From Candidatus Thalassospirochaeta sargassi (GTDB taxonomy: Bacteria; Spirochaetota; Spirochaetia; UBA9216): a stretch of 64,000 bases of DNA. Both the position numbers and the translations under genes were made by a program. This document shows positions 6,498 through 26,098 of the stretch, piece by piece; position 1 is the stretch's first letter, and every line of letters starts with the position of its first letter. Where the stretch lies: contig JAQQAL010000022.1 in the NCBI GenBank assembly GCA_028532855.1, positions 4,844 through 68,843 on the forward strand. Direction: 5' to 3'. The notes under the pieces are model-generated. The model had not been told where the DNA came from and ran no database searches. It was given only the letters and a program-made list of their open reading frames with translations.

Positions 6498-6512
6498 ACC
6501 CGCAGAGCGGGT

Positions 6513-7507: not shown

Positions 7508-7579
7508 TTACATGGAATATATACTATAGTAACGTATAAAAAGCTTGTGAATTATATGATTTACTGGTAAAATGATCAA

Positions 7580-8758: not shown

Positions 8759-8869
8759 CAAGAGATTTGGAGCAGTCTTAGCTATTGTCATGGAAATTTT
8801 GCTTACGCAAAATCCGCGCCAATGCCCTCGAAGACTCGGGTCGCTAAGCAGCTCAAATCGTCGTTAAAC
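8754..8869 (+). repeat. Integron attC site 7 (last complete site)
   Basis: ACATAACAagagatttggagcagtcttagctattgtcatggaaattttgcttacgcaaaatccgcgccaatgccctcgaagactcgggtcgctaagcagctcaaatcgtcGTTAAAC. Confidence 0.85.
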
Positions 8870-9094
8870 CGCTCAATTCTGTAGATTGCTGTCTATTACT
8901 TTATATTACTTCTATATAAGAAATTAGTCAAATCTTATTGCTCCTGGTTAAGTTGGATTCGGTCTGGTCGCAACTAATTCCTATCACTAACTGCTGTCAT
9001 ATATGTATACACTAATAAGCTTTATTGCTACTTTCTTGTTGGTGCCTATTTTATCATCCTGTTAATGTCTTGTCTTAAAATCATTATATCTTTT

Positions 9095-9122
9095 GGAGGT
9101 TATTTGGCCACCTCTTTTTTTT
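9095..9122 (+). terminator. Putative rho-independent terminator downstream of the cassette array
   Basis: Hairpin GGAGGT-tatttggcc-ACCTCT followed by a T8 run. Confidence 0.35.
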
Positions 9123-9257
9123 CTCAACTGTCAGGTTAATAACCTCACTGTAAACTATTATAACTGTTAAATATTAAAACTATTTTTGTACTAACTAATT
9201 GAATAGTTTCTAATATAACAAAAAAGTATATTTTATTCTTTCTACGTCGGGAATTTT

Positions 9258-10523
9258 TTAAGTATAGGTTTTTACTTTTACTTCATCTATTGTTTCATTT
9301 GTAAAAGGTATTTTAATACTTACTTCAAATCCATTCGATTTTGAAAAAAATATAACATCACCTCTAAGTTGATATTTTACAATATTTTTTACTAATGGTA
9401 ATCCTAATGTTTTAGATTTATCTAAGCTAATAGTGTCTTCACCTCCTTTCCCATTATCAATTATACTAATATATATTTTTTCATCATTCTGATAGCTACA
9501 TTCTATTCTGATATGTATAATTTCTTGACCATAATCAGAGTGCTCAATAGCGTTTAGAATAATTTCATTCATGATAAGTCCAATAGGTATTGATATTTCA
9601 AAAGGGATTTTAATATCAACAACATCTAAAGTCACCAAGACTCTATCACTATTAAGAACATAAGAGCTGTAAATTTCTTTTGTCAAATCATATATATAAT
9701 CTTTCAACGAAATAAATCTCAGATCATTAGCAGCATATAGTTTCTTATGCACAATAGACATTGCGTCCAATCGAGATATTGATTTTTTTAATACTGATTT
9801 AACTTCAGTATTTTCGCTATTCATAATCTGAATGTTTGTTAATGAAGAAATTATTTGCATATTATTTTTTGTTCTGTGATAAAGTTCTTTTAATAAAACA
9901 TCTTTTTCATCTAAAGCTTTTTTTAAAATTTTATTTCTATTAAAAACTTTTTTTTCTAATATAGCGTTATTATTTTCTAATTCCTGCTGTCGTTTATCAA
10001 GAATAAATCTTGTGAATAAATTTGTAATTATAAAAAAAATATTTATAATAAACCATGATATAAAGATATCTTTTGTAATATTTGTTGAAAATATGAATAA
10101 TAGAGATGCAAAAGTAATTTGTAAAATTGTATAAATTATAACTTGTTTTAATTTTAGAAATAAACTTGCAATAAAGATCGTTACGGTAATCCAAACTAAA
10201 GCAGTCATAGAGTTTTTACCAGTTACATCATATTTAAAAACAACTAAATAGCAAACTAGTAAAGTTCCAAAGATTGACATTAAACCACCAATTTTAAAAT
10301 TACGTAGTTTAGCTATTAAGTAACTTATAAAAAAGATTGGCGATCCAATTGTAAGTACTTCAGTTATTCCTGGTGGTGAATGAAATATTCCAATAGTACA
10401 AATAATTGTGTATAGCAATAAGAATAACAAAAGTCCCTTTACTTTATCATATTCTAAAGAACTGTTTGATGAAATATTTGGATAAATTAAAGATTTTATC
10501 AAGTGTAACTTTCGTAGCCTCAT
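9258..10523 (-). CDS. Membrane sensor histidine kinase of HisKA_2 type; orphan, with no adjacent response regulator
   Basis: Five to six N-terminal transmembrane helices. H-box HRTKNNMQIISSL (HisKA_2 family). C-terminal HATPase-like region (NAIEHS...DNGKG). Very AT-rich, like the cassettes. Confidence 0.7.
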   Translation of the reverse strand: MRLRKLHLIKSLIYPNISSNSSLEYDKVKGLLLFLLLYTIICTIGIFHSPPGITEVLTIGSPIFFISYLIAKLRNFKIGGLMSIFGTLLVCYLVVFKYDVTGKNSMTALVWITVTIFIASLFLKLKQVIIYTILQITFASLLFIFSTNITKDIFISWFIINIFFIITNLFTRFILDKRQQELENNNAILEKKVFNRNKILKKALDEKDVLLKELYHRTKNNMQIISSLTNIQIMNSENTEVKSVLKKSISRLDAMSIVHKKLYAANDLRFISLKDYIYDLTKEIYSSYVLNSDRVLVTLDVVDIKIPFEISIPIGLIMNEIILNAIEHSDYGQEIIHIRIECSYQNDEKIYISIIDNGKGGEDTISLDKSKTLGLPLVKNIVKYQLRGDVIFFSKSNGFEVSIKIPFTNETIDEVKVKTYT

Positions 10524-10684
10524 TCTAATTCCTTAGCAGAGTTTATAGGACTTCTTCTTGTTTTTAAAATAATTAAGAAACTATCTGTGTGACTGTAAGA
10601 CTGACATACAAATAGTTTCACATAGAAAAATGCTTTCGTCAAGAAAAATGTTATGTTTTAAAAGATAATAAAAACCTTCTCTTT

Positions 10685-11335
10685 ACCGGCTACCGCCCAT
10701 GAACCTTCTTCCGCATCCAGCCTATAACCCGGCTCACGGACTGCTACCGCAGACCGTCGGCTTCTATCCCGGCAGGGTTGCAAAAACCCGCGCCGAGGAC
10801 GTCGCTCCTGTTTTTGCTCTGCGGCCAATCGCTCCTGTTTCCGGCAACCGCGCTGCCACGCTCTCTTTGCCGGGCCTGCTAATAAAGCCTCTGCCGGCAC
10901 GTGCAGCTGCCGCGCATCCATGCGCGGCAATAAGGGTAAACTTTTCATGTAACTTTACCGGTCCTCATCAAACAGCCGTCCAGTAGAAATCGGGCAGGGT
11001 AGGTAATCTCTTCGTCTTTTCGGGAAGCACAATCAGTGCACTTGTATTAGAGAACCGGAACAGACTACCGGCCGGCTGCTATCTTCGGCCCGATTTTTAC
11101 GGCTTCCATCCGGACCAGCGCTGTTAAGGTAATTTATTGTATTTCTCCCCCCTCCCGTCCCCCCGTTGGGGGGAGCGTCCGGACTCCAGCCGTAAAAAAG
11201 GCCCGCGCAGCCGCCGTGTTTCACACCGCGGCCCCTATACATCATCATAAACCTATTCCCCGATTTGGATTCTTCATCATTGCCCGTCTCCGGCAAAACC
11301 GAAGGCTGTGCCTTCAGTTCAACCTCTGCCACTAA
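10685..11335. other. ~650 bp GC-rich island (~60% GC by eye) in an AT-rich context; probably non-coding, function unknown
   Basis: Composition shifts abruptly. The only ORFs are three mutually overlapping ones on both strands with Arg/Ala/Pro/Gly-rich low-complexity translations. It contains C/G-tract hairpins (tccccccgttgggggga; ggccgcggtgtgaaacacggcggc on the minus strand). Confidence 0.3.
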
Positions 11336-11403
11336 TTCTACACTGATTTATATAATTATCTATGTTTGTGGTATGTTGTAATTAAGAATTTATAATACAT
11401 AAA

Positions 11404-12120
11404 TTAAATCAATCTAACTTCGATATTTTCATTAAGGTAATCTCGCCATCTTTTCCAGTCGGGGTAAACCTTTGTCAGCAGCTTAAAAAAGCGGAGGCTG
11501 TGGTTATGTTCAATTATGTGGCATAGTTCATGGAATATAACGTAATCGATGCATGGTTTCGGTGCTGCTACGAGTTCGGGATTCAGATATATTCTTCCTT
11601 CTTTTGTACAGCTTCCCCAGCGCTTCGGCATTGTTTTAACTTTCAATTCAGGGATATTTATCACTTCGATTACAGAAAATGAGTTAACGCATTTCTGCAT
11701 TCTTTCATAGAATATCTGTCGCCCCTTTTCTTTATACCAATCAAGAAGAAGTTTTTCTTTTTTTTCAATAGTAAAATCTTCAGGTGTTGAAAGGTGGAAT
11801 CTTCCATTTTTTAATTTTACTTCAGGAGGACCGTTAAAAACTTTAAGCCTATATTGTTTCCCGAGATATCTGAACGTTTCTCCGTTATTATATTTTGGTT
11901 TAGGTTGAGCCGGCTGTATACGATCAAATTTGAGTTGTTGTTTATATATCCAGGAAGAACGTTTTCTGACTTTTTCCATTATTTTATCGATCGAAGCATC
12001 TTCCGGTGCTATGACTTCAACATGCTTATCCGGATAAACATGAATTGCAAGCGTTTTCCTGTTCCTGCGGTCGAGATCGAACCGGATTTCAGTTTTACCG
12101 TATCGGACGTTATAGTTCAC
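11404..12120 (-). CDS. YgjP-like (DUF45/M48-like) zinc metallopeptidase; last gene of the type I R-M operon
   Basis: WGSCTKEGRIYLNPELV...DYVIFHELCHIIEHNHS (HExxH). It overlaps the hsdR stop by 11 nt. Confidence 0.85.
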   Translation of the reverse strand: MNYNVRYGKTEIRFDLDRRNRKTLAIHVYPDKHVEVIAPEDASIDKIMEKVRKRSSWIYKQQLKFDRIQPAQPKPKYNNGETFRYLGKQYRLKVFNGPPEVKLKNGRFHLSTPEDFTIEKKEKLLLDWYKEKGRQIFYERMQKCVNSFSVIEVINIPELKVKTMPKRWGSCTKEGRIYLNPELVAAPKPCIDYVIFHELCHIIEHNHSLRFFKLLTKVYPDWKRWRDYLNENIEVRLI

Positions 12121-15100
12121 GATGTTTGGCTATCTCCAGAGATTGTTCGATGATTCGGTCTATTGCGTCATAATCCCATGAAAGGTCATAACGCCCCTTT
12201 ATCTGGAAAAGGTAGTCCTCAATGTCATTAAAAATTTTATTATGCACACTTGAATCATTTATCCAATCCCGCTTCTTGTGTTTATAAATTATATCATCAA
12301 CCTGTTTGGCTACATCCGAAGCAATATAAGCAGGAGTTTTTTCGCAAACCATATCATTCGGTAGTTCTTCAGCAATTAAGCGATAGTAAGGTCTTGCCGA
12401 TTCATGTTTTTTCAGCTCATCGGGAACATCGCTTCCGCCGCTTTCTCTCATCTCGTTCATTGCTTCACGTACTCTATTCAGATACTCGGCGTCCGATAAC
12501 CTCTTCGCTCTATGTTCGGCTATAGCCTCACTTATGATTTCTGATAACCGTTTATAGAGCAGGGGATCTTCCTGCATTTTTTCATGGATGGTTTTCTTCA
12601 TTCTGGAAGCAATTGTATCCGCTTTAGCTGCGTCTCCCTCAATACCTTCAAGTTCTCTTTCAAAGTCATCAATATTAAACAGATCAACGGGCTCTATTAT
12701 ATTTTTCACTTCATCGGCACCGATATATTTATTTACCATATTACGTATTTGTATTTCGTATGAAGAATAATCGACGGTTTCACCGAATCGTTGTTTGATA
12801 GTGTTTCTTAATGAGATGAACATTTTGAGATCGCTTTTATATCTCTCGATTGTATCAGATGAAGTATGTTCAAGAAATGCGGCATTAGAAAGGGCAAGGC
12901 GAAGCGTGTTGAAAAAAATTCTTAATGTTTCATAGAAACGATGCCGCACATCCTCTGGTTCAAGATGAAGCTGCATTGCTTCTGTATCTGTTTTATTGGC
13001 TATTTCAGAAAATATTGCCCAGAGATTGGTATGATACTCATGCAGTTTCGTGATTTCATCGGTTGTAGTAGTTAGTGTTCCGATGATATCTTCACGATCA
13101 AATCCTTTCTCTTCGAGGGTGTTGTAAAGCTCGATGGCCTCGTTGAGCTGTCCGAAAATACCCCTGTAATCAATAATTAAACCGTATTCCTTTCCGTCGT
13201 ATAATCGGTTGACGCGGGCTATAGCCTGTAAAATGTTATGTTCCTTGAGTCTTTTATCAATATAGAGGACCCCGTTTCTCGGTTCATCAAAACCGGTAAG
13301 GAGCTTGTGTATAACAATAATAATTTCAGGATCATCAGAATTGTGAAATCTGTCTATTATCGTATCCTGATAGGCTTTCGGAGTTCCGAATCTGTCCATC
13401 ATTGATTTCCAGAATCTCTGTACTTCAGGTATATTTGATTCGTCAACCTCGCTATGATCGGTTCTTGTATCAGGCGGAGACATAACTATTTCTGTGCTTA
13501 TATCACCAAGCTCATCAAAGCAGTTTTTGTATTTTACCGCCTCCAGTCGTGAAGATACGGCAAATTGTCCTTTCAAACCCGATTTACGAAATTGGCTGTA
13601 GTGCTGAATAATATCATATGTAATCTCTTTAAGCCTATCGTCGGATTTGGTAAGTTCCTCCTCTCGTCTGAACCTTTTTTTCAGATCCAGCTTCTGATCT
13701 TCGGTGAGATCTGATGTTATTCGTTCAAACCATTTGTCTATCTGATTGCGATCCCCCCGCAGTTCGCTCATTCTTCCTTCGTAAATAAGGGGAGTAACCG
13801 CCCGGTCGGCTATAGCCTGATTCATTGTATATGAATGAATAAATCCCCCGAACTTTCTTGCCGTACTTTTTTCATTCCTTAAAAGCGGTGTTCCGGTAAA
13901 ACCGATATAACATGCATTCGGGAAAACCCGTTTCATATTTGCATGTGCAGAACCGTATTGCGAACGATGACTTTCATCCACAAGTACAAATATATTTCTG
14001 CTTTCCGATTTCAGTTTGTTCTTTCTGAGTCCCGCTTCAAATTTATCGATTATTGTCGTGATAATACTTGCCTTGTTCTCTTCAATCAATTTAAAGAGGT
14101 TTTCGCCGCTGGTTGCCCGCTTTACAGCTTTTCCACAGTTCTTGAAGGTTTTATATATCTGATCATCGAGATCAACTCTGTCCGTTACGAGTATAATCCT
14201 CGGATCAATTATCGAACTTTCAAGGCTGATTGCCTTTGCCAGAAGCACCATCGTAATTGATTTGCCAGAACCGGTTGTATGCCATATAACTCCGCCCTGT
14301 CTCGGTAAATCTCCTTTCGCCTTCGTTATTTTTGAAACAGTTTCCTTTACTGCAAAGTATTGCTGGTAGCGGGGAACCTTCTTTATTTTGTTGTCGAAAA
14401 CGACGAATGATTGCGTCAATTCCAGAATACGTTCAATCCGTAATAGGCTGTATATAGTTCTATCCTGCTCAGAAGGTTTTCTGTCGCCGGCATTCCAAAT
14501 CTCCAACATCTTTTGTTTTTGCCAATCAGGTCTTTCGGAAAAAAGATGCGTCAGTGTTGATTCATCAAGTTTTTTATTAATCGAATGATTTAACTTTGTC
14601 TCATCTGTAGAATCGTATTCCTCTCTCCATATGGACCAGAATTTTTCAGGGGTTCCTGCAGTTGCATATGATGCCTGGTTCTGAGCAATGGAAAAAAGGA
14701 GCTGGCTATACACAAAAAGGTGGGGGATTTCATCAACACCCTGATTGCGTATATGCTGGCTGATACCTTCTTTTATAGAATCGGGTTTATCGGGTCTCTT
14801 TGCTTCTATTACGGCGAGCGGAATACCGTTTACAAAAAGCACAATATCGGGCTTTCTTGTTCTCCGGCTGTGTCGCTGTTCGATAATAAACTCATCGCAA
14901 ACATGGAAAACATTATTTTCCGGATTGTCCCAGTCGATGTAATTAAGTGAAAAGCTTTTTGTATATCCTTCAATTGTCTGCTCAAAACTCTTGCCGAGTG
15001 TTATCAGATCATAAATGAGTTCATTCGTAGTAATCAGACTGTCAAACGGAACCTCGCGTATCTCCTGAACTGCCTTTTCAATATTTGATTCAGTAAATTT

Positions 15101-15301
15101 GTGATTTTTTCCTTTAAATGAAAAAGAGTTTATTTTATGAAGCTGTTCTCTGAGTATTTTATCCAGTATCGGTTGATGAAGCCTGCCTCCCCGCATGGAT
15201 TCGCATTCAGAAGGTGTAATATATTCATATCCAAGATTGATAAGCTGTTTGAGTGCCGGGATAAGTGAAATTAGATCTTCCTGATATTCAGAAATTGACA
15301 T
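12110..15301 (-). CDS. hsdR: Type I restriction enzyme R subunit
   Basis: 1063 aa. Helicase motif I TTGSGKS and DEAH-like VLVDESHRSQ. N-terminal nuclease region. Sits in an operon with hsdM and hsdS. Confidence 0.9.
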   Translation of the reverse strand: MSISEYQEDLISLIPALKQLINLGYEYITPSECESMRGGRLHQPILDKILREQLHKINSFSFKGKNHKFTESNIEKAVQEIREVPFDSLITTNELIYDLITLGKSFEQTIEGYTKSFSLNYIDWDNPENNVFHVCDEFIIEQRHSRRTRKPDIVLFVNGIPLAVIEAKRPDKPDSIKEGISQHIRNQGVDEIPHLFVYSQLLFSIAQNQASYATAGTPEKFWSIWREEYDSTDETKLNHSINKKLDESTLTHLFSERPDWQKQKMLEIWNAGDRKPSEQDRTIYSLLRIERILELTQSFVVFDNKIKKVPRYQQYFAVKETVSKITKAKGDLPRQGGVIWHTTGSGKSITMVLLAKAISLESSIIDPRIILVTDRVDLDDQIYKTFKNCGKAVKRATSGENLFKLIEENKASIITTIIDKFEAGLRKNKLKSESRNIFVLVDESHRSQYGSAHANMKRVFPNACYIGFTGTPLLRNEKSTARKFGGFIHSYTMNQAIADRAVTPLIYEGRMSELRGDRNQIDKWFERITSDLTEDQKLDLKKRFRREEELTKSDDRLKEITYDIIQHYSQFRKSGLKGQFAVSSRLEAVKYKNCFDELGDISTEIVMSPPDTRTDHSEVDESNIPEVQRFWKSMMDRFGTPKAYQDTIIDRFHNSDDPEIIIVIHKLLTGFDEPRNGVLYIDKRLKEHNILQAIARVNRLYDGKEYGLIIDYRGIFGQLNEAIELYNTLEEKGFDREDIIGTLTTTTDEITKLHEYHTNLWAIFSEIANKTDTEAMQLHLEPEDVRHRFYETLRIFFNTLRLALSNAAFLEHTSSDTIERYKSDLKMFISLRNTIKQRFGETVDYSSYEIQIRNMVNKYIGADEVKNIIEPVDLFNIDDFERELEGIEGDAAKADTIASRMKKTIHEKMQEDPLLYKRLSEIISEAIAEHRAKRLSDAEYLNRVREAMNEMRESGGSDVPDELKKHESARPYYRLIAEELPNDMVCEKTPAYIASDVAKQVDDIIYKHKKRDWINDSSVHNKIFNDIEDYLFQIKGRYDLSWDYDAIDRIIEQSLEIAKHREL

Positions 15302-15310
15302 TAAAAACTC

Positions 15311-16705
15311 CTATTTATCAATACCATATTTTCTTGCCTTTTCCCAGAATGACCTCTTGCGGCCGTGTTCTGCCTTTATCCTACTGAAATAATCGGCATG
15401 AGATTCGAGATTGTCCGGATACTGAGTAATTCGTTCATCGAGAATAATCAGTTCTCTCAGGTACCCGATGCCGTATTTATATGCTTTAGAATAAGCTCGC
15501 CTTAAAATGTCGTTCAGAAGCGCCCGGTACAATACTACCTGTCCGCATAACGCATTATCTGGTCCGAGCTGCTCGAGGATGTTTAGGATGGATGTGTAGC
15601 CTAATGTCTCGAAATCCGCAGCATCATTTATCAGTCTTTGTTCTGCCTCTGCAATTTTATTCAAATAGAGAAGAACCGGAACTGCCCGCTCAGGCTGGGG
15701 ATCATTAAGGGCTGTTTTTACAGCTTCTGCAAGAATCTTTTTGTGGGTGCCCGGTTCCGCAATTGAATGGTATTCTTTTAAATAATACAGACACGGATTT
15801 TCTTTCCATTTTCTCTCCTGCAAAATACGTAGTTGTTCCGTATCTCCCGTCAACTCAAACAGCTTTTTATATAATTCATCCCTGTCGGAATTAAATCTGA
15901 TTTGCCAGGTTGTTTCCTCGAGTAATTCCCTGGCTTTTTTGAAGTCAGAGAATTGTAGATAGATTTGAATAAGTCTTTTTATCTGAAGATTATTCGGTTC
16001 AGGATTACGAATACGTAAAGCCTCTTCGTAAGCTGCCGGATTATGCATGGCGATAGCGATTTGTTCCATATTTATTTCAAAACCGGCGGCGGTATGATCA
16101 TAGCCTTCGATATTGGAGCAGTCCCAATCAAGCAGTCGGTTTTTATAGATATAGTAAATTTTCTGCAATGAATCAGGAGTAAACAAAATATCCGCAGAGT
16201 TAAGTATCAGCTCCCGGCAGCCGTAATCATTGCCGTCTGCTATATCCATGATTAAGGGAATCCAGTATTCGTCCGCTTTTTTCGTTCCGGCTGCTGCTTC
16301 GAGCCAGAGAATGCAGAATTGATTGAGTTCAGTACCGACTGCGCCTCCACTGTCGTCGACATTTTCGATGATGCTTCCGTCGTTGCGCAATACAAAGTCG
16401 GCCAAGCGCCACGCTTCATCAGGGGCTGAAGGTAGTAGTGTTTCGGTAATTTCTTCGCGAAGGTCTGCAATCTCTTCAGCGAAATCAAAACTGCTGTTGT
16501 AATTTATAAACTGATTTGACTCAATCCAGTTGTTGATCCTTTTTTTAAAGAATGCGGCAACAGTGCTGTAATCATCTTTGTTAAGGCGGTTATCAATGTA
16601 ACTGCTGATTCTTTCATCCTGCTTTTGGTAGATACTCATTATTAGTTCAATGAGTTCGTTTTTTGTCATATCCTCAAGCTTGTTTTTTACTTCTTCAAAA
16701 TCCAT
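15311..16705 (-). CDS. Hypothetical protein embedded between hsdS and hsdR
   Basis: 464-aa ORF, 10-14 nt from each neighbour on the same strand. No recognisable catalytic or NTP-binding motif. Probably helical. Confidence 0.6.
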   Translation of the reverse strand: MDFEEVKNKLEDMTKNELIELIMSIYQKQDERISSYIDNRLNKDDYSTVAAFFKKRINNWIESNQFINYNSSFDFAEEIADLREEITETLLPSAPDEAWRLADFVLRNDGSIIENVDDSGGAVGTELNQFCILWLEAAAGTKKADEYWIPLIMDIADGNDYGCRELILNSADILFTPDSLQKIYYIYKNRLLDWDCSNIEGYDHTAAGFEINMEQIAIAMHNPAAYEEALRIRNPEPNNLQIKRLIQIYLQFSDFKKARELLEETTWQIRFNSDRDELYKKLFELTGDTEQLRILQERKWKENPCLYYLKEYHSIAEPGTHKKILAEAVKTALNDPQPERAVPVLLYLNKIAEAEQRLINDAADFETLGYTSILNILEQLGPDNALCGQVVLYRALLNDILRRAYSKAYKYGIGYLRELIILDERITQYPDNLESHADYFSRIKAEHGRKRSFWEKARKYGIDK

Positions 16706-16719
16706 AAGAATAACCCTGC

Positions 16720-18009
16720 CTAAACCTTCACCCGGATTTCGCCGGTTAGCAGTTTCTGCATAAGGCCGCGTTTTTGGGATTTTATATTCTCTAATGTTTT
16801 TTTTAGGTAACTCAAATCAGCACGGAAGGTTTTTATTATATTTACTATCTCTTGCTGTTCTTTCAAAGGGGGGATTATCAAATTAATTCCATAAAAATCT
16901 GCTTTTGAAATATTAAGCAAGCCATGTGCTCTTGCACCGACCTGAACTCTACCGTTTAGTTCTATATTACAAAGACCAGACTCAAAATACTCATCAATAT
17001 ATGCTAAATTTACATTTGATTCATCTATCGCAAAACATATATATAATGTGGATAAGACACCGGCATCATATTTATCAAGAATCTTTATAGCACCAAAAGG
17101 ATATCCTTTCATTGAACTTCTGTTATATGCAAATTCATTTTTCTTTAATAAATAATAGTTTGAAAGATTTTCTCCGGATACGTTTCTTTTAAAATATTCT
17201 TTCTGGTCTACAAGACCGTTTGTTCCAGATGCCGTTAGTACATGGGAAGATTCGCCATTATTTTTACGTGTGATATCAATAGCAATATCTTTGAGTTTAA
17301 TTTTCTTCCATCCATCTAAAATTATATTATTACTGTTTGTAGGAAAACCAAAACCAGGTAATCTTCTCTTTCCGGTAAAAAGCTCATTCATTAACCCTTT
17401 TTTTCGTTTTTCTTTAAGTTCAATCAGCTTTTCAAGCTTCTCTATTGCCTCATCCCAGGTTGAGAGGATTTCGGCGATCTTTTTCTGTTCGGAGAGAGGC
17501 GGGATTGCTATAATGAAAGCTCTAACATCACCTTTCGTAATATTTGGATCTTTTCTACTGCTTGCGGCATAATTTCTCCAGCGATTTATTTCACCATTTA
17601 GATAATGAAGGAGATACTCTGAATGATGATTTTTACTTGGAAACATTGCCGACAGAGCTTGATTGCATGATGCTCTTTTCTTTAAAATCCCAGTCCGGCC
17701 GATTTGTTTGAATCCACCATACATTGCCACAAAAACAGTATCTATTGGTAAAAGTTTACAAGAACATTCAATTAGAGCAATATCAGTGATGCACTCTTCT
17801 GTATTTACGATTTCACGATTATTTAGATCTGTAGTTTTTACCCATGGATGAATACCATCTTTAAAATAGCGAACGTATTCTCCTCTATAAGGAGTTGTTC
17901 CACTCACAATTTTTGTAACATCCTTTAGTCGTTTTGTATTCCACTCTTCAGGTATCCAGCCAATCTTTGTTTCTTTATACCCGGGGCGTCCTTCGTTTAC
18001 TTTCGTCAT
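16720..18009 (-). CDS. hsdS: Type I restriction-modification specificity subunit with two target-recognition domains (TRDs)
   Basis: 429 aa. Conserved central and C-terminal coiled repeats (SEQKKIAEILS...LMNELFTG ; KEQQEIVNII...LMQKLLTG). Directly abuts hsdM. Confidence 0.85.
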   Translation of the reverse strand: MTKVNEGRPGYKETKIGWIPEEWNTKRLKDVTKIVSGTTPYRGEYVRYFKDGIHPWVKTTDLNNREIVNTEECITDIALIECSCKLLPIDTVFVAMYGGFKQIGRTGILKKRASCNQALSAMFPSKNHHSEYLLHYLNGEINRWRNYAASSRKDPNITKGDVRAFIIAIPPLSEQKKIAEILSTWDEAIEKLEKLIELKEKRKKGLMNELFTGKRRLPGFGFPTNSNNIILDGWKKIKLKDIAIDITRKNNGESSHVLTASGTNGLVDQKEYFKRNVSGENLSNYYLLKKNEFAYNRSSMKGYPFGAIKILDKYDAGVLSTLYICFAIDESNVNLAYIDEYFESGLCNIELNGRVQVGARAHGLLNISKADFYGINLIIPPLKEQQEIVNIIKTFRADLSYLKKTLENIKSQKRGLMQKLLTGEIRVKV

Positions 18010-19554
18010 CTAAAATCCCAACTCTTTCAAATATCCGTTCATCTTTGTTCTTAGCTCGCTGAGTTCTCCCTCAAGCTGCTCTATCTCTTTCTGAACGGCG
18101 GGGATGTCGACCGGTTCTTCCTCTTCGAAGGTATCAACGTAGCGGGGGATGTTCAGGTTGTAATCATTCTCCTGAATCTCTTCCTGTGAGGCAAGGTAGC
18201 TGTATTTATCTTTTGTTTCTCTATTCTTGAAGGTTGAAACGATCTTGTCGATATTTTCGCTTGTTAACCTGTTCTGATTCTTGCTGTTCTGAAATTCTCG
18301 GCTGGCATCAATGAAAAGTATATCCGTTGATTTTCGGTTTCTCTTGAAAACAAGAACGGCTGTTGGAATTCCGGTGCCGTAGAAGAGATTTCCCGGAAGT
18401 CCTATCACGGCGTCGAGCAGGTTCTCTTCAATTAGCTTCTGTCGTATCTTGCCTTCGCTTGCACCCCTGAAAAGTACCCCGTGCGGAACTACGACTCCGA
18501 TTCTGCCGTTTCCCATTGTTATAGTTTCAATCATGTGGCTGATGAATGCATAATCACCCTTTGATTTCGGCGGCAGTCCGCGGTGAAAGCGGTTGTAGGT
18601 ATCAGTCTGTGCTTCTTCAATTCCCCATTTATCAAGAGAGAAGGGCGGATTCGCAACGACAACCTCAAACTTCATGGTTGTATCGTTTTCAAGCAGCTTG
18701 GGACTTCTTATTGTATCTCCCCATTCAATTCTGGCTGAATCCATACCGTGAAGGAACATATTCATCTTGGCAAGTGCCCATGTTGAACCGGTTATTTCCT
18801 GTCCGTACAGAGCGAAATCGTTAGAATCCTTGTTTTTTACCTGATTGCCGCATTTGATAAGTAGGGAGCCTGACCCACAGGCCGGATCGCATATACGCTC
18901 GCCCGGTTTCGGATCAAGCAGTTCCGCGAGCAATTCCGACACCTCCGCAGGCGTATAGAACTCGCCAGCCTTTTTGCCGGCGCCGGCTGCAAATCTTGCA
19001 ATTAAGTACTCATAGGCATTGCCGATAACATCCATGTTACCGGTTTTTGAGGGCCTCAAATCAAGTTTCGGATTATTAAAATCCTCCAACAGGTGCTTTA
19101 ACCTCGCATTACGGTCTTTTGTCTGTCCGAGTGCTGCCTCAGAGTTGAAATCGATATTACGGAAAACCCCCTGAAGCTTCTCCCTGTTGCCTTCTTCTAT
19201 TTGTTCAAGCGCAACATTGATTATTTCTCCAAGGTTGTTTGCCTGACGTTGGGAATACAAATCGTTAAAACTGCACCCTTTGGGAAGTTTGAAGCGTTCG
19301 CGATCCAGTCTACGCCTGATTCGTTCTTCATCATTACTGAATTCTTCTATTAGGCTGTTATAGTGTTCGGTCCAGACATCGGAAATATACTTTAGAAAGA
19401 GCATTACAAGGATGTAGTTTTTATATTCAGAGGCTTCTACAACGCCCCTGAAGGTATCGCATGCCGCCCATAATACTGCCTCGATTTCCTGTTGCTTTGT
19501 TTGTGAATTGTTCTGCATATTATTCCTCATGTCCATAATTTTGATTGCTGCCAA
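18010..19554 (-). CDS. hsdM: Type I R-M N6-adenine DNA methyltransferase subunit
   Basis: Motif I DPACGSGSLL and motif IV VVANPPFS; HsdM N-terminal domain. Confidence 0.9.
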   Translation of the reverse strand: MAAIKIMDMRNNMQNNSQTKQQEIEAVLWAACDTFRGVVEASEYKNYILVMLFLKYISDVWTEHYNSLIEEFSNDEERIRRRLDRERFKLPKGCSFNDLYSQRQANNLGEIINVALEQIEEGNREKLQGVFRNIDFNSEAALGQTKDRNARLKHLLEDFNNPKLDLRPSKTGNMDVIGNAYEYLIARFAAGAGKKAGEFYTPAEVSELLAELLDPKPGERICDPACGSGSLLIKCGNQVKNKDSNDFALYGQEITGSTWALAKMNMFLHGMDSARIEWGDTIRSPKLLENDTTMKFEVVVANPPFSLDKWGIEEAQTDTYNRFHRGLPPKSKGDYAFISHMIETITMGNGRIGVVVPHGVLFRGASEGKIRQKLIEENLLDAVIGLPGNLFYGTGIPTAVLVFKRNRKSTDILFIDASREFQNSKNQNRLTSENIDKIVSTFKNRETKDKYSYLASQEEIQENDYNLNIPRYVDTFEEEEPVDIPAVQKEIEQLEGELSELRTKMNGYLKELGF

Positions 19555-20417
19555 TTGCGCGGGAATGTATTCTTTATTTCCGGTACTGATTCATACTTAT
19601 CGAATAGATCCTTTATTTCAGAGCTCCATGAACTTCCGGCACCAATTACTGATAATAGATAGTTACATATAGTTAATGCCGTAAAAACGTTGCTGTTCGA
19701 TATTCTCACAGGGCTGAACCATTCCGGATGTTTCCTTTCTCTCGGAAGTTTAAAGCTGTAACCCAGGCGTCTGTTATATAATCTTGAATGATGTGCGCAG
19801 ATATTCCGGATGCTGTTTATGCCTACTATCCATGATGACAGAACCTGATCAGGAACACCGAAGTCTTTGGCGATTGTCTGTTTCAGGCTATTGGATACGC
19901 CCCGGTATAGACTTACTATTGAGCCGAATGTCATGATTTCAACGGCCATCCATAAAGGCGGTTCTTTATGTATGTCGCCGTATTTATTCATGAAATGCCG
20001 GATAAACTCTTCACGACTTCTTTCAGTTTCTTTATGGATATTCTCTATTAGTTGTATACGCCTATAGTCTTCAAGTTCAGGTAATGCGGATTTATCAGTA
20101 TAGGCAAAGGGTCCGTTAGCCATGCTGAAGTGATAGGCTATTACTGATCTGAACGATACTTCAATCTTGTCTATGGCTGAAAGAAGATGATTTCTGAGTT
20201 TCTGATCATATTCACATATTGTGAGGATTTTTTCCAAATTAATAGATGAACTATATCTTTCATCCGGTCTTCTGAATGGATATAGATAACCGGTTAGTCG
20301 GTAGTAATTGTTATATCTCAAATATTCAAGCAACTTTTCTTTATCCGCTATAAATCCGCGGGAAATGAGTAAATCTGCTTGATCATTGATGGTTAACGGA
20401 GGTTTTGAATAGATCAT
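19527..20417 (-). CDS. Abi_2 (AbiD/AbiF-like) abortive-infection protein with a HEPN motif
   Basis: N-terminus KPPLTINDQADLLISRGF...YNNYYRLTGYLYPF and HEPN signature RNICAHHSRLYN (R-x4-H-H-x-R-L-[WY]-N). It overlaps the hsdM start by 28 nt. Confidence 0.75.
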   Translation of the reverse strand: MIYSKPPLTINDQADLLISRGFIADKEKLLEYLRYNNYYRLTGYLYPFRRPDERYSSSINLEKILTICEYDQKLRNHLLSAIDKIEVSFRSVIAYHFSMANGPFAYTDKSALPELEDYRRIQLIENIHKETERSREEFIRHFMNKYGDIHKEPPLWMAVEIMTFGSIVSLYRGVSNSLKQTIAKDFGVPDQVLSSWIVGINSIRNICAHHSRLYNRRLGYSFKLPRERKHPEWFSPVRISNSNVFTALTICNYLLSVIGAGSSWSSEIKDLFDKYESVPEIKNTFPRNWQQSKLWT

Positions 20418-20490
20418 GATAAACCTCCGGATAAAAAAACACCCGCCGAATTACGCTTGCAAAGCAGAGGCGCGGCAGGTTTGCTATAAT

Positions 20491-20519
20491 TAATATAATC
20501 CGAAAACGAGCGACTGTCA
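20491..20519 (-). promoter_or_regulatory. Putative sigma70-like promoter for the abi-hsdM-hsdS-orf-hsdR-ygjP operon
   Basis: On the minus strand: TTGACA, a 17-nt spacer, then TATATT. It lies ~75 nt upstream of the Abi ATG. Confidence 0.4.
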
Positions 20520-20558
20520 ACTTTTGGTAAGCTGAAATTAAGTAATAATCCTGTCATT

Positions 20559-21137
20559 TTAACTGTTTAATCCTTTTAAGATAATACTTTCAAGTAATTG
20601 TTGTTTTTTAGCATACAATTCATCCATAATCTGTTTTTCATGATTAACCGATTTTACTAATTCGGCAAAAATGTGAATGTCATTATCATTCGGCAATGGA
20701 ATTGTACAATTTTCCAGTACTCTCCGATTTACATTTATGAGTAAACTCGCTCCTGCATTCTTCCTGAAGTAATGTTGACCGGGCGACGAATTAATATACC
20801 ATGCTATGTATTCGGCAGGTAGATTGCTTTGGGGTGTTAAAACGGAAAATTGTTGTCCTGCAGCTGTATTCTTATCAACAGTTGATATCGGAACTGCAAA
20901 AATCCTTGTTCCCCGGCCGCAGAAGACGACATCGTTAGGTTTTAAAAAATCAGGCAAGCTTAAACCGACTTGGTTTATGCGAACCAGTTCTCCCCAATTT
21001 ATGCCTTCGGGGCTTGCATCTTTCATTTGAATGATGGAAAAGGCACCGTCAGGATCTTCGATTAATCTTCCCCTCACTGCATATCCGGTACGAATTTTGG
21101 TAATTTCTTTGAGTGGAACGTGTTTTAATTCCTTCAT
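20559..21137 (-). CDS. Orphan half-HsdS (single target-recognition domain plus conserved C-terminal helix)
   Basis: 192 aa with TRD-like LKEITKIRTGYAVRG...VVFCGRGTRIFAV and a C-terminus HEKQIMDELYAKKQQLLESIILKGL resembling the HsdS conserved repeat. Confidence 0.65.
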   Translation of the reverse strand: MKELKHVPLKEITKIRTGYAVRGRLIEDPDGAFSIIQMKDASPEGINWGELVRINQVGLSLPDFLKPNDVVFCGRGTRIFAVPISTVDKNTAAGQQFSVLTPQSNLPAEYIAWYINSSPGQHYFRKNAGASLLINVNRRVLENCTIPLPNDNDIHIFAELVKSVNHEKQIMDELYAKKQQLLESIILKGLNS

Positions 21138-21269
21138 TTATACTGATTTTACTCATGTTAATGCATTATGTCAATGAATAAGTGTTTTATTACATAATTT
21201 ATGCTTGACGTTTGAATTGTTTGGAATTATATTCCAATCATAAGATTTGTCATTGTAAAAAACGTAATC

Positions 21270-21949
21270 ATGCAGCTTCCAGACATTCAATCAAAAAATA
21301 TCCGGAGAAGGAGAATATTGATGGATATCTCAAAACAAGAATATTTAGAAAATGTACTTTCCTCATACAGAATGAGGCACATTAGTCGGCTTGTAGAAAA
21401 GCATAGAACCAGACGCGACGAGATTAAGGAGTATCTTGAAGCACATTATGGAGGGAAAATCTACAATCCGATGAATTCAGGCTCTTTTGCAAAGCATACT
21501 GCAATAAACAGTAAATTTGATCTGGATCTCGTTGTTCCTTTTAAGCGTGATTCATTTGATACTTTGGAGGGGATGTTCAAAGACATATTCAAATTGTTGA
21601 ATGCTGCCTACAAAAATCGTGCTGTTGTCAGAAAGCAAAAGGTTTCCATTGGTATTGAATTTTATGCAGATAATGACGGTGATGAAATCAGTATCGATGT
21701 AGTACCGGGGAGAGAACTGGAACAGGATAAATATCCCGATAACTATAATTTAAATCTATTTGTGAATTCCCGCTACGGAACTATAGAAGAGAAGAATTTT
21801 CTGAAAACTAACATTAAGGCTCAAATTGAATATATCAAGGCTCGTGACAATGAAAGAAAAGTAATCAGATTGCTTAAAGTCTGGAAAAACAGGCATAATC
21901 GCCCGTATAAATCATTTTTATTGGAACTGCTCACGATTAAGGCTTTTGA
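21270..21949 (+). pseudogene. Pol-beta superfamily nucleotidyltransferase (cGAS/DncV/SMODS-like, or ANT-like), N-terminal 226 codons, disrupted by IS3 insertion; the C-terminal piece resumes in frame at 23148-23226
   Basis: Motifs GSFAKHTAINSKFDLDLVVPF (GS...DxD) and LKVWKNRHN...FLLELLTIKAF. Joining 21949 to 23148 restores the frame (..TIKAF-E-NDKTINKF...GG*). Confidence 0.6.
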
Positions 21950-21966
21950 TGACCTTACCCCCAGAT

Positions 21967-22794
21967 TCATCCACTTACACTTAGAGGTTCCGGCATTTTT
22001 CCTGCTTCAAACTTATCCCGAAATTCATTCGGTGACAAGTTCCCTAATGAACTATGCGGCCTAATTGTGTTATATTCATGCCGCCAATTTTCAATAATTT
22101 TCCTGGCTTCATTTAGGTTTGGAAACCAATTCATATTTAAACAATCATCCCTAAACCGACCATTGAAACTTTCTATGAAACAGTTTTCAATCGGCTTTCC
22201 GGGAGTGATAAAAGTTAATTTAATCCCTTTTGAATAACACCAGCTATCAAGGATTCTGCTTATAAATTCCGGTCCATTATCACATAATATAAAATCTGGA
22301 AATCCTCGCAATAAACCTATTCTTTCCAATGTTGCTGCTACTCTTCTTCCTGGCAATGATGAATCAACTTCGATAGCGAGTGCTTCTCTTGTAAACTCAT
22401 CAATCACATTAAAAGTACGAAATCTTCTACCACCGGCAATACTATCTGATACAAAATCCATTGACCATTTTTCATTCGGTCGAACAGGAGCATCCGGCCG
22501 TTCCCTGTTCTCAGAGCGAATCCTTCTTTTTCGTTTGCGACGCAGGCTTAATTCTTCTTCACGATAGATTCTCTCAACTTTCTTGTGATTTACTTTTACG
22601 CCTTCACGTCTTAAAAGAACATGAATTCTTGGGCTTCCATATCTCGGATATCTTCTTGCAAGAAATTTAATCCGTTCTCTGAGTTCTGTTTCTTCATGTC
22701 CTTTCTTTTCGTATCTGAAAGTGCTGCGATTAAGATGCGAGAGTTTGCATGCTCGTCGTTCAGATAGCCCGAAGTTATTGATTAGACGGTTCAC
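21967..22794 (-). CDS. IS3 transposase OrfB (DDE/rve integrase core)
   Basis: WSMDFVSDS...NVIDEFTREAL...CDNGPEF...NCFIESFNGRFRDDCLN; typical IS3 catalytic domain. Confidence 0.85.
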   Translation of the reverse strand: MNRLINNFGLSERRACKLSHLNRSTFRYEKKGHEETELRERIKFLARRYPRYGSPRIHVLLRREGVKVNHKKVERIYREEELSLRRKRKRRIRSENRERPDAPVRPNEKWSMDFVSDSIAGGRRFRTFNVIDEFTREALAIEVDSSLPGRRVAATLERIGLLRGFPDFILCDNGPEFISRILDSWCYSKGIKLTFITPGKPIENCFIESFNGRFRDDCLNMNWFPNLNEARKIIENWRHEYNTIRPHSSLGNLSPNEFRDKFEAGKMPEPLSVSG

Positions 22795-22805
22795 CGCTGT
22801 TCGTT

Positions 22806-23078
22806 TTACTTCGGGCTGCAGTAGTTTTTTACTAAATCATTTAAAGCAAGAATATCAAGAGCCTGATCTGCTACCAGCCGTTTTAGTTTCTGGTTTTCAG
22901 ATTCCAGTTCTTTAAGCCTTTTAACATCGCTGATCTGCATCCCACCATATTTACTTTTCCAATTGTAATAGGTTGCATCGCTTATTTCATACTTGCGACA
23001 GACATCAAGAACCTTCGCTCCTGCGATTACCTCATTCAAAATCTGGACAATTTTCTCTTCTGAATACTTTGTTTTCAT
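22806..23078 (-). CDS. IS3 transposase OrfA (HTH plus leucine zipper)
   Basis: MKTKYSEEKIVQILNE...ATYYNWKSKY...LKELESENQKLKRLVADQ; ends at the frameshift site. Confidence 0.85.
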   Translation of the reverse strand: MKTKYSEEKIVQILNEVIAGAKVLDVCRKYEISDATYYNWKSKYGGMQISDVKRLKELESENQKLKRLVADQALDILALNDLVKNYCSPK

Positions 23079-23147
23079 CCTGACCTCTCCTTAATTTTCG
23101 GCCGGATTACTAAGCTGCTTTTGGACTAATTTTAAGGGGAAAGGTCA

Positions 23148-23226
23148 GAATGATAAGACAATCAATAAATTTCTAATATATGAGTGTACAATTAATGGCA
23201 TATGTAAATCATGGAAAGGAGGATAA
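23148..23226 (+). pseudogene. C-terminal remnant of the IS-disrupted nucleotidyltransferase
   Basis: In-frame continuation NDKTINKFLIYECTINGICKSWKGG* immediately after the IS right end. Confidence 0.5.
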
Positions 23227-23337
23227 TTTGCCAGCGATGGAGATGACCGCAATGGATCAGAAGAAAGAATTTATTCTACTCTGGAAATCCGGGCAGTATA
23301 GTTTCAGTCGGAAAACACAAAAGATAAATTCCGAATA

Positions 23338-23398
23338 TCAATAGACTTGGAGCAGTCTTAGCTATTGTTGCGAAAAATTTGCTTGCGAAAATCTGCGT
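23338..23398 (+). repeat. Truncated attC (5' half only)
   Basis: acttggagcagtcttagctattgttgcgaaaaatttgcttgcgaaaatctgcg matches the 5' arm and variable hairpin of attC3/6/7. It lacks the conserved 3' arm cgccaatgccc...gtcGTTA. Confidence 0.75.
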
Positions 23399-23418
23399 GA
23401 ATAATATGTAGAAAATTA

Positions 23419-24249
23419 CTATATGGGCTTTTTGACATTCTTCAGCTTAATCTTGCGAATAAGAATGCAGATTAGAAATTCAGCAGTTAATGCCAGAACA
23501 ATAGACGGACCGGAAGATAGATCTATATAGAAGGATACATAGAATCCTATTATAGTCGCTAAACCAGCCAAAAGTAGAGAAAGGCCAATTATGCTCGGTA
23601 GACGCCTGGATACTAAAGAGGCTGAGGCGCCTGGGGTTACCAAAAGTGCCAAAACCAGTACAACACCAACCGTTTGAATAGCCACCACCGTTGTTAGTGC
23701 AAGCATAATCAATACGATATACCGCACTAACGCCGGCGACAAACCAATGGCTGTAGAATGAGCCGGATCAAATGATGCTGTGACAATTTCTTTAAAGGAT
23801 AGAAACGTACCTGCGATAACTATTACCGTTACGACAGCCATCATAATCAGATCCTGAGTTGAAACTCCAAGAATATTCCCGAAAAGGATATGAGAAAGAT
23901 CTGAGAAGGTTGCTACTCGGCTCAGCATTAAAATCCCTAACGCAAAGAATCCGGTAAAAACAACTCCTATTGCAGTGTCCTCCCGCAGATTACCTTTTGA
24001 AGAGATTAGACCTATACCTATAACGACGAAAGAAGCAGCACCCAATGCTCCCCATAGCAGCGATATCCCAAGTATATAGGCTACTACTATACCCGGCAGA
24101 ACTGAGTGAGCGAGTGCATCTCCCATAAAAGACATGCCACGCCATACAACAAAGGCGCTTAAAGTAGCGCAGGCTGCTGCGGTAAACAGGCCGCCAATTA
24201 ATCCTCGGAGAATGAATCCGTACTGGAGAGGCTCAATTATGAATTCCAT
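23419..24249 (-). CDS. Metal (Zn/Mn) ABC transporter permease
   Basis: 276-aa polytopic membrane protein of ZnuB/TroC-D type; overlaps the upstream ATPase gene. Confidence 0.8.
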   Translation of the reverse strand: MEFIIEPLQYGFILRGLIGGLFTAAACATLSAFVVWRGMSFMGDALAHSVLPGIVVAYILGISLLWGALGAASFVVIGIGLISSKGNLREDTAIGVVFTGFFALGILMLSRVATFSDLSHILFGNILGVSTQDLIMMAVVTVIVIAGTFLSFKEIVTASFDPAHSTAIGLSPALVRYIVLIMLALTTVVAIQTVGVVLVLALLVTPGASASLVSRRLPSIIGLSLLLAGLATIIGFYVSFYIDLSSGPSIVLALTAEFLICILIRKIKLKNVKKPI

Positions 24250-25049
24250 GGTTGGTAGTCCTTGTGAAACTCAAAGCCGTAGGCTTTGGCAATAGTATCT
24301 GGAGTAAGAACATCTTTAGGTGTTCCATCTGCAATAATTTTTTTATCAAGGAATATGGCCCGGCTGAAATGAACAGTCAGAACACCCAGATCGTGGGTAC
24401 TGACAATGACGGCCTTCTTATCCTGAACTGTGATTTTTTCCAGTGTATGGAAAATCAGTTCCTGGGTCTTGATATCTACATGGTTTAATGGTTCATCCAG
24501 AAGCATTAAATCTGCATCATGGGCCAAGGTGCGTGCAAGCATAACCCTCTGCTGTTGGCCGCCGGATAATTCACCGACCTGCCGGTCTGCCAGATTAGTT
24601 ATTTCCATTGTCTCCATAGCCGAATCAACTGCTTCATGATCTATCTTTCCTGGTCTTTTGAACCATCCCAGGTGGACGAACCGCCCCATCATAACAACTT
24701 GTCGAACAGTAACAGGAAAATTCCAGTCTACTGTTGATCGCTGTGGAACAATTGCCACCCGGTGAAGACACTGGGTGGCAGGATGACCATATACAACGAT
24801 ATTACCCCGTTCTAGTTTTTCTATACCGAGGATTAATTTAAGGAGGGTTGATTTCCCTGCTCCGTTTGGTCCTACCAGAGCAACCCGCTCACCCGGCTGA
24901 ACCTCCAGTGAAACATTTTGAAGAACATCCGCCTGATTCCCCGGATATCGGTGATAGAGATTATTGCAGCTCAATGCCGTGCTATGACTTTCAGCGGGAA
25001 GGTTACAAACTCCTCCGTAACCGAATCTGGAAAATATGGATGAAATCAT
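24237..25049 (-). CDS. Metal ABC transporter ATP-binding protein
   Basis: Walker A GPNGAGKSTLLK, signature LSGGQQQRV, Walker B LMLLDEP. Confidence 0.85.
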   Translation of the reverse strand: MISSIFSRFGYGGVCNLPAESHSTALSCNNLYHRYPGNQADVLQNVSLEVQPGERVALVGPNGAGKSTLLKLILGIEKLERGNIVVYGHPATQCLHRVAIVPQRSTVDWNFPVTVRQVVMMGRFVHLGWFKRPGKIDHEAVDSAMETMEITNLADRQVGELSGGQQQRVMLARTLAHDADLMLLDEPLNHVDIKTQELIFHTLEKITVQDKKAVIVSTHDLGVLTVHFSRAIFLDKKIIADGTPKDVLTPDTIAKAYGFEFHKDYQPWNS

Positions 25050-25061
25050 CGTATTCCTCTG

Positions 25062-26051: not shown

Positions 26052-26098
26052 TTTAAACTCCTATAAAGATTTTCTCACCACGAAGGGAGAGTATAAAA

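Follow-up and report, generated by a model that had tools for sequence, protein, structure and literature searches.

The present analysis concerns the end of an array of gene cassettes in the metagenome-assembled genome (MAG) of Candidatus Thalassospirochaeta sargassi (Spirochaetales), as contained in a window of 64 kb, i.e. the whole stretch of DNA that was analyzed. The locus is probably the distal end, now eroded, of an integron-type array of cassettes on the chromosome of this uncultured Spirochaetales. Seven cassettes, each closed by a full attC site on the + strand, are followed by a block (positions 8869–23333) that separates the last complete site, attC7, from the decayed 5′ half of an eighth, and the first 14.3 kb of this block are non-cassette DNA comprising at least five unrelated modules, mostly of anti-phage genes. 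Evidence for this interpretation includes the half site itself, sequences of two insertion sequence (IS) families just before it, and a related metagenomic contig in which homologues of cassette 7 with attC7 and of one of these IS sequences lie in one continuous array. The features on which the argument turns are as follows.

1–8868, + strand: cassette array, seven cassettes, each closed by a full attC; GC 29.6%, GC at third codon positions (GC3) 22–24%
8754–8868, + strand: attC7, the last complete site; 134 bits; fold −23.1 kcal/mol, z = −4.35
21321–21949, + strand: 5′ two-thirds of a gene for an oligonucleotide cyclase of the cyclic-oligonucleotide-based anti-phage signaling system (CBASS) type, residues 1–210 of about 320; PADLOC Cyclase 4e-64, NCBIfam CBASS_cyclase_a
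21950–23147, − strand: IS3-family element, 1198 bp, apparently intact; ends TGACCTTACCCC / TGACCTTTCCCC
23148–23311, + strand: 5′ end of an IS481-family transposase gene (leader, ribosome-binding site, first 27 codons), 164 bp, the rest deleted
23312–23333, + strand: 22 nt between the IS481 fragment and the half-attC; homology to the related contig stops at about 23311 and the attC match runs from 23334
23334–23398, + strand: decayed 5′ half of an eighth attC (R″, L″ and central stem), L′ and R′ gone
23419–26454, − strand: complete metal (Zn/Mn) ATP-binding cassette (ABC) transporter operon (89-aa regulator, binding protein, ATPase, permease; NCBIfam AztB/AztC-like)

Results

The cassette array

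Repeat search and alignment identified seven full attC sites, all on the + strand, at 1404–1534, 2935–3047, 4157–4271, 5310–5444, 6359–6496, 7393–7506 and 8754–8868. The copies are 113–138 nt long, start with ATAACAA (R″) and end with GTTAT or GTTAA (R′). An attC site combines R″ and R′ boxes (RYYYAAC...GTTRRRY) with L″ and L′ boxes in an imperfect palindrome, with extrahelical bases on the folded bottom strand. The bottom strands tested, folded as single-stranded DNA, reached −23 to −35 kcal/mol (z = −4.4 to −6.3 relative to shuffles) and formed a long imperfect R/L-box stem with bulged, extrahelical bases and a three-way junction, so that the ends of these repeats and their bottom-strand folds together identify them as attC. 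Spaced 1010–1513 nt apart and all on one strand, the seven also form a cluster as IntegronFinder defines it, namely at least two attC on one strand less than 4 kb apart (PMC4889954). The open reading frames (ORFs) of the cassettes are likewise all on the + strand and encode an ion channel, AAA/DUF234, GNAT and AAA_14/DUF4143 proteins, and hypotheticals. A scan that covered only part of the window ORFs saw no integrase among those scanned.

A covariance model (R1) built from the seven full sites scored them at 110–137 bits. Run with filters off on both strands of the whole 64 kb, it returned no attC beyond these seven, with 11 bits for the half site at 23334. An earlier reading of this DNA, made from its letters and ORFs alone (hereafter the sequence-only reading), had described everything from attC7 to the remnant as free of attC, and this description holds, with no site in 8869–23333 and no complete attC at the half site.

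The half-attC and the right border

The sequence-only reading had also placed a 5′ half-attC, with its 3′ arm gone, just before the znu-type metal transport operon, and closer alignment bears this out. The half-attC is 82–85% identical to attC3 and attC7 and diverges after ...AAAATCTGCG; it scores 11 bits compared with at least 110 for the full sites, folds no better than shuffles (z = +0.5), and is altered at 5 of the 35 columns that are invariant across the seven full sites, the R″ core among them. A functional attC needs both halves so that R″ can pair with R′ and L″ with L′, and with L′ and R′ missing the half-attC is predicted not to be recombinogenic. Its breakpoint is in the middle of the site, away from the integrase crossover point G|TT, which argues that the last event here was illegitimate and not integrase-mediated. 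The 22 nt that precede the half-attC presumably formed the very end of the cassette body to which that site belonged.

Only 20 nt beyond the half-attC lies the stop codon of the metal-ABC permease gene (znuB). The core chromosome thus resumes right after the remnant, as had been proposed, with the operon complete and, past it, housekeeping genes for LeuA-type synthases, acetolactate synthase, ArgRS and FtsH. The four-gene operon is syntenic, with the permease last, in 40 spirochaete loci, and the attC type of the window is absent from all 40. Comparison of synteny through this operon, which the sequence-only reading had recommended, succeeded as far as the operon itself, which is shared, and did not inform on its flanks: the permease is only 59–83% identical to proteins of Spirochaeta, Salinispira and Alkalispirochaeta MAGs, the nearest genomes, and the common part of the loci is the operon only.

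Within the metal-binding protein gene of this operon there were three tandem 24-nt repeats (25612–25698) encoding a His/Asp/Glu-rich loop (HDEHEADH, three times). Such loops are usual in zinc-binding proteins of the ZnuA/AztC type.

Comparison with a related array

The sole relative available for comparison is ENA ERZ21831104 ctg75172l, a metagenomic contig of 13.3 kb (L060), in which the following features correspond to the array.

L060 4338–5645: equivalent of window 7516–8821, which covers cassette 7 in full and the beginning of attC7; identity 73.5% across 1324 nt, ORF broken in L060
L060 5580–5677: attC (52 bits), followed by an RHH/ParE cassette
L060 6546–6651: attC (57 bits), followed by SnoaL_2 and Phd/YoeB-like genes
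L060 about 7756–7853: degenerate attC, seen by eye from its R″ and R′ ends, below the model threshold

The IS481 remnant of L060 starts about 12–30 nt past the degenerate attC. Its homology with the window is 76% at the DNA level (23165–23308 relative to L060 7885–8029) and extends by eye from about 23150 to 23311, where it breaks off. In L060, then, only 2.2 kb and two or three ordinary cassettes separate the two landmarks, cassette 7 with attC7 on one side and the IS481 sequence on the other; in the window, where their order and orientation are the same, the distance is 14.3 kb and includes no cassette. This difference in spacing indicates that the block replaced distal cassettes. The sequence-only reading had proposed that the block was inserted in the distal array or had taken its place, and the comparison supports that part of it; the order of events is inferred.

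An alternative is that the array natively ends at attC7, that the block is flanking chromosome serving as a defense hotspot, and that the half-attC and the IS481 piece come from a separate solitary cassette or small cluster near znuB. Insertion of cassettes at secondary sites by the integrase, and stray attC clusters, are documented (PMC4889954), and the DNA of the restriction-modification (R-M), abortive-infection and IS genes is core-like in GC content, with no island integration signature found. Against it stand the arrangement in L060, where a single continuous array holds both the homologue of cassette 7 and attC7 and, 2.2 kb away, the IS481 remnant, ordered and oriented as in the window; the position of the half site on the array strand; and the kinase segment beside attC7, which is cassette-like and not core-like in composition. 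We regard this alternative as unlikely.

The right flanks differ, with DeoR and FecCD genes in L060 and the znu-type operon in the window, and this, together with the IS fragments in L060, suggests that the array end is unstable in both lineages. A match of 16 of 17 nt between window 23309–23324 and the L060 DeoR gene was not significant, as 23 of 300 shuffles did as well. L060 is decayed over positions 1–8900, with IS256-type (Transposase_mut) and IS21-type (IstB) transposase fragments between attC sites, and its IS481 transposase pseudogene lacks about 140 internal codons.

Two insertion sequences and a truncated cyclase

The sequence-only reading took the gene at 21321 to be a nucleotidyltransferase split by an IS element. 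Rather, the gene is truncated: it breaks off at residue 210 of about 320, and the window does not contain the other 110 residues. The match to the cyclase ends at 21950, the first base of the IS, both by tblastn with four homologues of about 320 aa and with a profile of 115 homologues (positions 1–210/211); no match to the C-terminus of about 110 residues was found in any frame, in 23100–23460 or in the rest of the window, by tblastn at word size 2 or with the 115-sequence profile.

At both loci of cyclase homologues examined, the cyclase comes first in an operon and is followed by ThiF (E1-like, 514–556 aa) and Prok-JAB; SAVED fragments or DUF6602 lie nearby, and by their predicted domains these operons are a type II CBASS-like system. 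A complete type II CBASS consists of cyclase, Cap2 (E1/E2), Cap3 (JAB) and an effector. No ThiF/Cap2, JAB/Cap3 or effector gene was found in the window, which therefore does not hold a complete type II CBASS.

The element at which the cyclase stops belongs to the IS3 family. Members of this family have orfA and orfB with a programmed −1 frameshift, a DDE (rve) transposase and terminal inverted repeats TG...CA. Here there were orfA (22806–23078, HTH_Tnp_1), a slippery AAAAAAC at its end, orfB (21967–22794, rve/rve_3) and terminal bases TGACCTT...AAGGTCA, with a match to NCBIfam transpos_IS3 at 1e-73, and the element is present as a single copy in the window. Its flanks are unrelated DNAs, cyclase on one side and IS481 on the other. 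A simple insertion of such an element is expected to leave a target duplication of 3–4 bp on its flanks. If the element runs from 21950 to 23147, its flanks read TGA and GAA; a right end 3 nt further on, at 23150, makes both TGA. Unrelated DNA on the two sides of an IS, together with mismatched flanking triplets, is classically a sign that two copies recombined or that an adjacent deletion took place. The unrelated flanks accordingly argue against a simple insertion and point to deletion or two-copy recombination.

Beyond the IS3 element, a 54-aa ORF (23180–23344) matched by phmmer an 83-aa helix-turn-helix (HTH_28) protein, P0365, with 21 of 27 residues (78%) identical over ORF residues 17–43. 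P0365, on L060, is the N-terminus of a degraded IS481-family transposase gene (transpos_IS481 positions 2–70 and 210–283, 5.7e-22). IS481 transposases consist of an N-terminal HTH and a DDE rve domain; in the window the assignment covers 27 codons and runs through the L060 gene, which is itself a pseudogene. Judged by this homology, the 183 bp between the IS3 element and the half-attC are the 5′ end of an IS481 transposase gene and not the end of a cassette gene, and the right end of the block then holds two IS elements and at least three breakpoints. The earlier suggestion that the IS and the half-attC mark scars of deletion or recombination is thus supported and is here changed from one IS element to two.

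These findings bear on two further explanations. First is the sequence-only version of events, in which an eighth cassette carried the nucleotidyltransferase, a simple IS insertion had split the gene, and the half-attC was its own site. The gene does lie on the array strand upstream of the half-attC, and past the IS a reading ...AFD-K-TINKFL is possible, faintly like AFDKKDISGNLW of the homologues. This reading of those bases as a continuation of the cyclase (AFDK-TINKFL) was rejected, as they belong to the IS481 leader. The profile of 115 full-length homologues matches positions 1–211 only and nothing past the IS in any frame, there are only 183 bp for 110 missing residues, with bases 76% identical to the start of an IS481 transposase gene, and the homologues head three- or four-gene operons of CBASS type (cyclase, ThiF, JAB) and are not cassettes. 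The explanation is barely credible.

Second is that the whole block was captured by the integrase as a circular molecule at the attC7 crossover, making it a giant cassette with the half site as its attC. In its favor the block starts exactly after the attC7 R′ box (GTTAA|AC), and an attC remnant in the same orientation stands at its far end. The sequence after any attC is the start of the next cassette, so that no special event is required to explain a sharp left edge. The IS3 element and the IS481 fragment shared with L060 separate the block from the half site, which places the half site with the older array DNA, and the breakpoint of the half site is mid-site and not at G|TT. A gene cassette is the unit between an upstream attC crossover and its own downstream attC, usually with one promoterless ORF on the array strand; the block has no attC inside or at its end, and 9 of its 10 genes are on the strand opposite to the array. 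Capture of this kind is highly improbable.

Assembly support

As the source is a MAG, the contig might be a chimera, misjoined at a repeat (an attC or an IS) or where the GC content shifts sharply, and the block might then not truly adjoin the array or znu. Two Logan contigs from run SRR22388478 agree with the window at 100% identity, L061 over 8837–10596 and L042 over 21331–23416, and a third (L001) covers the znu side over 23414–25656. Breaks at 10596 and at 23414–23416, an overlap of only 3 nt (23414–23416) between L042 and L001, and a piece of 55% GC between DNA of 24% and 37% GC count in favor of a chimera. The other critical joins were assembled independently, i.e. attC7 to block, cyclase to IS3, IS3 to IS481 and IS481 to half-attC, as well as 18 nt past the half site. 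Other Logan contig ends (e.g. 21331) fall in unique sequence, which makes low coverage and not branching of the graph the likely cause of the breaks, and a repeat-induced chimera would leave a whole attC and not half of one. Artefact is very unlikely as an explanation; owing to the 3-nt overlap, the link from half-attC to znuB rests on the MAG assembly. It is possible that the population is heterogeneous at the join of half-attC and znuB.

Composition of the block

Segmentation by k-mer and GC content upheld the earlier view of a composite accessory block. Its segments differ from 24% to 55% GC, the R-M genes have 35–45% GC, and the core to the right of the block has 41% GC and GC3 of 31–48%; these shifts in composition show the block to be a mosaic. 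Marks of an integrative genomic island are a gene for an integrase or recombinase, an att site such as a tRNA, and direct repeats at the flanks. In the block there was no integrase by Pfam, the only tRNA of the window is at 49937, and no long direct repeats flank the block; searched as a whole against plasmids, it gave no match. Its modules to the left of the cyclase are as follows.

8869–10659, − strand: AT-rich segment with an orphan histidine kinase gene (9258–10523), HisKA_2/HATPase_c by Pfam
10660–11340, no strand: GC-rich segment without a credible ORF, 0.7 kb, 55% GC, between DNA of 24% and 37% GC
11404–12120, − strand: YgjP-like zinc metallopeptidase, last gene of the R-M operon; PF01863, 9e-59
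12110–15301, − strand: HsdR restriction subunit, 1063 aa; Pfam HSDR_N, SWI2_SNF2, T1R_D3; PADLOC REase_I 7e-236
15311–16705, − strand: DUF6880 passenger between hsdS and hsdR, by Pfam
16720–18009, − strand: HsdS specificity subunit; Pfam Methylase_S, PADLOC Specificity_I 8e-105
18010–19554, − strand: HsdM methyltransferase; Pfam N6_Mtase 2e-110, PADLOC MTase_I 8e-141
19527–20417, − strand: AbiD/Abi_2 abortive-infection gene, first long gene of the operon; Pfam Abi_2 2e-55, PADLOC AbiD 1e-72
20559–21137, − strand: half-size HsdS-like protein with a single target-recognition domain, 192 aa; PADLOC Specificity_I 4e-12

The kinase gene has 24% GC and 15% GC3, and its tetranucleotide profile correlates with the array at r = 0.94 compared with 0.78 for the core. 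On this composition, an eighth cassette may have been interrupted here, with the segment as its 5′ part. There were only three full-length homologues of the kinase, at 37–46% identity, and both of the two contexts obtained are ordinary chromosome, one of them beside a response regulator; the homologues were therefore rejected as cassettes.

The GC-rich segment is a compositional outlier to both sides (tetranucleotide r = 0.25 to the core and 0.06 to the array), and in structure prediction it folds strongly on both strands (z = −4.1 and −3.7 relative to shuffles). It is bracketed by a direct repeat, TAATTAAGAA.., matching at 13 of 15 positions (10570–10584 and 11379–11393, TAATTAAGAAaCTAT / TAATTAAGAAtTTAT), and on the − strand promoter-like hexamers precede it (11382–11335) and a hairpin with a U-rich tail follows (10619–10577). 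Rfam gave only tRNA and chance-level matches for the whole window and, at relaxed E-values, for 8800–11500. There was no match to plasmids or phages, nor to viral contigs in two exact-motif scans, and no second copy of the IS3 end was found near the boundary of kinase and GC-rich segments. Candidates for the nature of the segment are a large structured RNA, a small mobile element and foreign junk. That it is an undescribed large structured RNA or small non-autonomous mobile element riding defense islands we hold to be quite unlikely, and a weaker second possibility of the same kind is entry of the block through the integrase at the attC7 crossover; if that were true, integrons could take up whole defense islands.

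The R-M operon occupies 9.7 kb of the − strand in the order half-size HsdS, AbiD, HsdM, HsdS, DUF6880, HsdR and YgjP-like peptidase, so that the three subunits of a type I system (HsdR, HsdM and HsdS) occur together. It was compared with four loci (L052–L055) whose YgjP proteins are 70–71% identical, and is collinear with them, with the same order hsdM-hsdS-X-hsdR-ygjP. The slot X between hsdS and hsdR holds DUF6880 in the window and DUF3800 or SocA_Panacea in the relatives. Nucleotide identity to the four is 69–77% (69–71% for hsdR) and ends exactly at the ygjP stop codon, which marks the operon out as a module complete in itself. In L055 a 199-aa Methylase_S gene occupies the position matching the half-size HsdS, and a 73-nt leader before abiD (20420–20492) is 89% identical to L055 2447–2518, before hsdM, which suggests that abiD was slotted between a conserved promoter or leader and hsdM. 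The R-M/AbiD operon as a whole looks intact from its predicted genes.

The same attC family elsewhere

A scan with the attC core found the same attC family in short arrays of five environmental metagenome contigs (L047–L051: JGI Ga0070729_10018350, Ga0272441_10035542, Ga0209633_10025094, Ga0209633_10108011 and Ga0272441_10315946), with up to 98% identity to attC3. The integron lineage is thus present in several sampled communities. L060 carries attC of this family as well. Nothing in these five contigs matched window 8869–9257 or the tail before the half-attC.

Directly after the R′ box of attC3 there is a conserved leader of about 95 nt (window 4272–4369), and the same leader follows three attC in two of the metagenome contigs (L049 3155–3292 and 4215–4356, − strand; L048 2210–2348, − strand). 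It holds the long invariant runs ATAAAAATGTTAGAA and GGGTGTAAAAT and ends just before a start codon with an 8-bp hairpin, ATCGCCCG...CGGGCGAT, that includes one compensatory pair. The ORFs downstream have no detectable kinship, and the leader has no Rfam match.

Discussion

Patterns detected in the window are consistent with a cassette array that once continued past attC7 and was then invaded and pruned. On this interpretation an IS481 element would have come to lie just after an attC, in the cassette whose own attC is the present half site. Foreign DNA, comprising a defense island of R-M and CBASS operons and the GC-rich piece, would have entered a distal cassette proximal to the IS481 one, the AT-rich kinase segment possibly being, on composition, the front of the cassette so interrupted. 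An IS3 element would then have landed in the island, and recombination or deletion at its end may have removed the 3′ third of the cyclase, the Cap2-like and Cap3-like genes and the effector, as well as the remaining cassettes and the attC in front of IS481. A second deletion would have taken most of IS481 and of its host cassette, joining codon 27 to the last 22 nt of the cassette, and a third the 3′ half of attC8, ending 20 nt beyond the znuB stop.

Several points weigh against this interpretation. The array runs off the start of the window, where an intI and attI would distinguish a complete integron from an integrase-less attC cluster (CALIN), and the locus may be either. Logan contigs do not span the link from half-attC to znuB or that from kinase to GC-rich segment (10596–10660). 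The kinase segment has no attC, the homologue contexts examined are not cassettes, and its cassette origin is argued from composition alone. No integrase, tRNA or att repeats show how the island entered. The argument from unequal repeats at the IS3 element is soft, since both flanks are TGA if the right end is at 23150. There is one relative only, which shares two sequences of mobile type (a cassette and an IS) and has another right flank, and common ancestry of the array end is likely but not proven. Finally, the order and number of events are our inference.

Comparison with known systems places an eroded array of this kind close to sedentary chromosomal integrons and clusters of attC lacking integrases (PMC4889954), with which it shares same-strand attC 1.0–1.5 kb apart, promoterless + strand ORFs mostly of unknown function, an IS within the array, and an array end broken by rearrangement. 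About one complete integron in four contains IS elements, and arrays are split by rearrangement (Cury et al. 2016, PMC4889954). The present locus differs in that a multi-module defense island of 12 kb, and not a lone IS, is involved, and in that the last site is halved mid-site. Chromosomal integrons whose attC types are conserved are known from Spirochaetes (Ghaly et al. 2021, PMC8352920; PMC4889954); the likeness to Treponema-type integrons is one of phylum, and the host here, unlike theirs, is a free-living Spirochaetales MAG. Defense genes in chromosomal integrons are described as streamlined cassettes (bioRxiv 10.1101/2024.07.02.601686), whereas the defense DNA here is within the array but not in cassette form.

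The island resembles other defense islands in its type I R-M with a variable passenger slot, AbiD in the operon and an adjoining CBASS cyclase operon, and in one locus of cyclase relatives (L044) the cyclase operon also adjoins methyltransferase genes. The likeness to type II CBASS lies in the matching cyclase models and in full-length relatives that are followed by ThiF and Prok-JAB with SAVED-domain fragments nearby; the window differs in having only cyclase residues 1–210, and no Cap2, Cap3 or effector. As deletion junctions, the IS3 and IS481 sequences show what is known of such cases, i.e. an IS3 with orfA, A6C, orfB and TG...CA ends, unrelated flanks and mismatched triplets; there is no second copy of the IS3 element in the window, and the arrangement fits either adjacent deletion or recombination between two copies.

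The findings have implications for the genome and for its annotation. Everything to the right of attC7 is predicted to be frozen with respect to excision by the integrase, with the R-M/AbiD operon fixed there, and the CBASS system would be a dead remnant, a fossil, to judge from the truncated gene. Annotation pipelines would take the cyclase fragment, and likewise the 54-aa ORF, for ordinary genes. The case is clear but ordinary, as erosion by IS and rearrangements is already documented for integrons, and it opens no new question. It provides a worked example of the distal decay of a cassette array in a phylum with little-studied integrons, in which non-cassette defense DNA would lodge in the array, two IS families prune the island and the array, and the last site is left as half.

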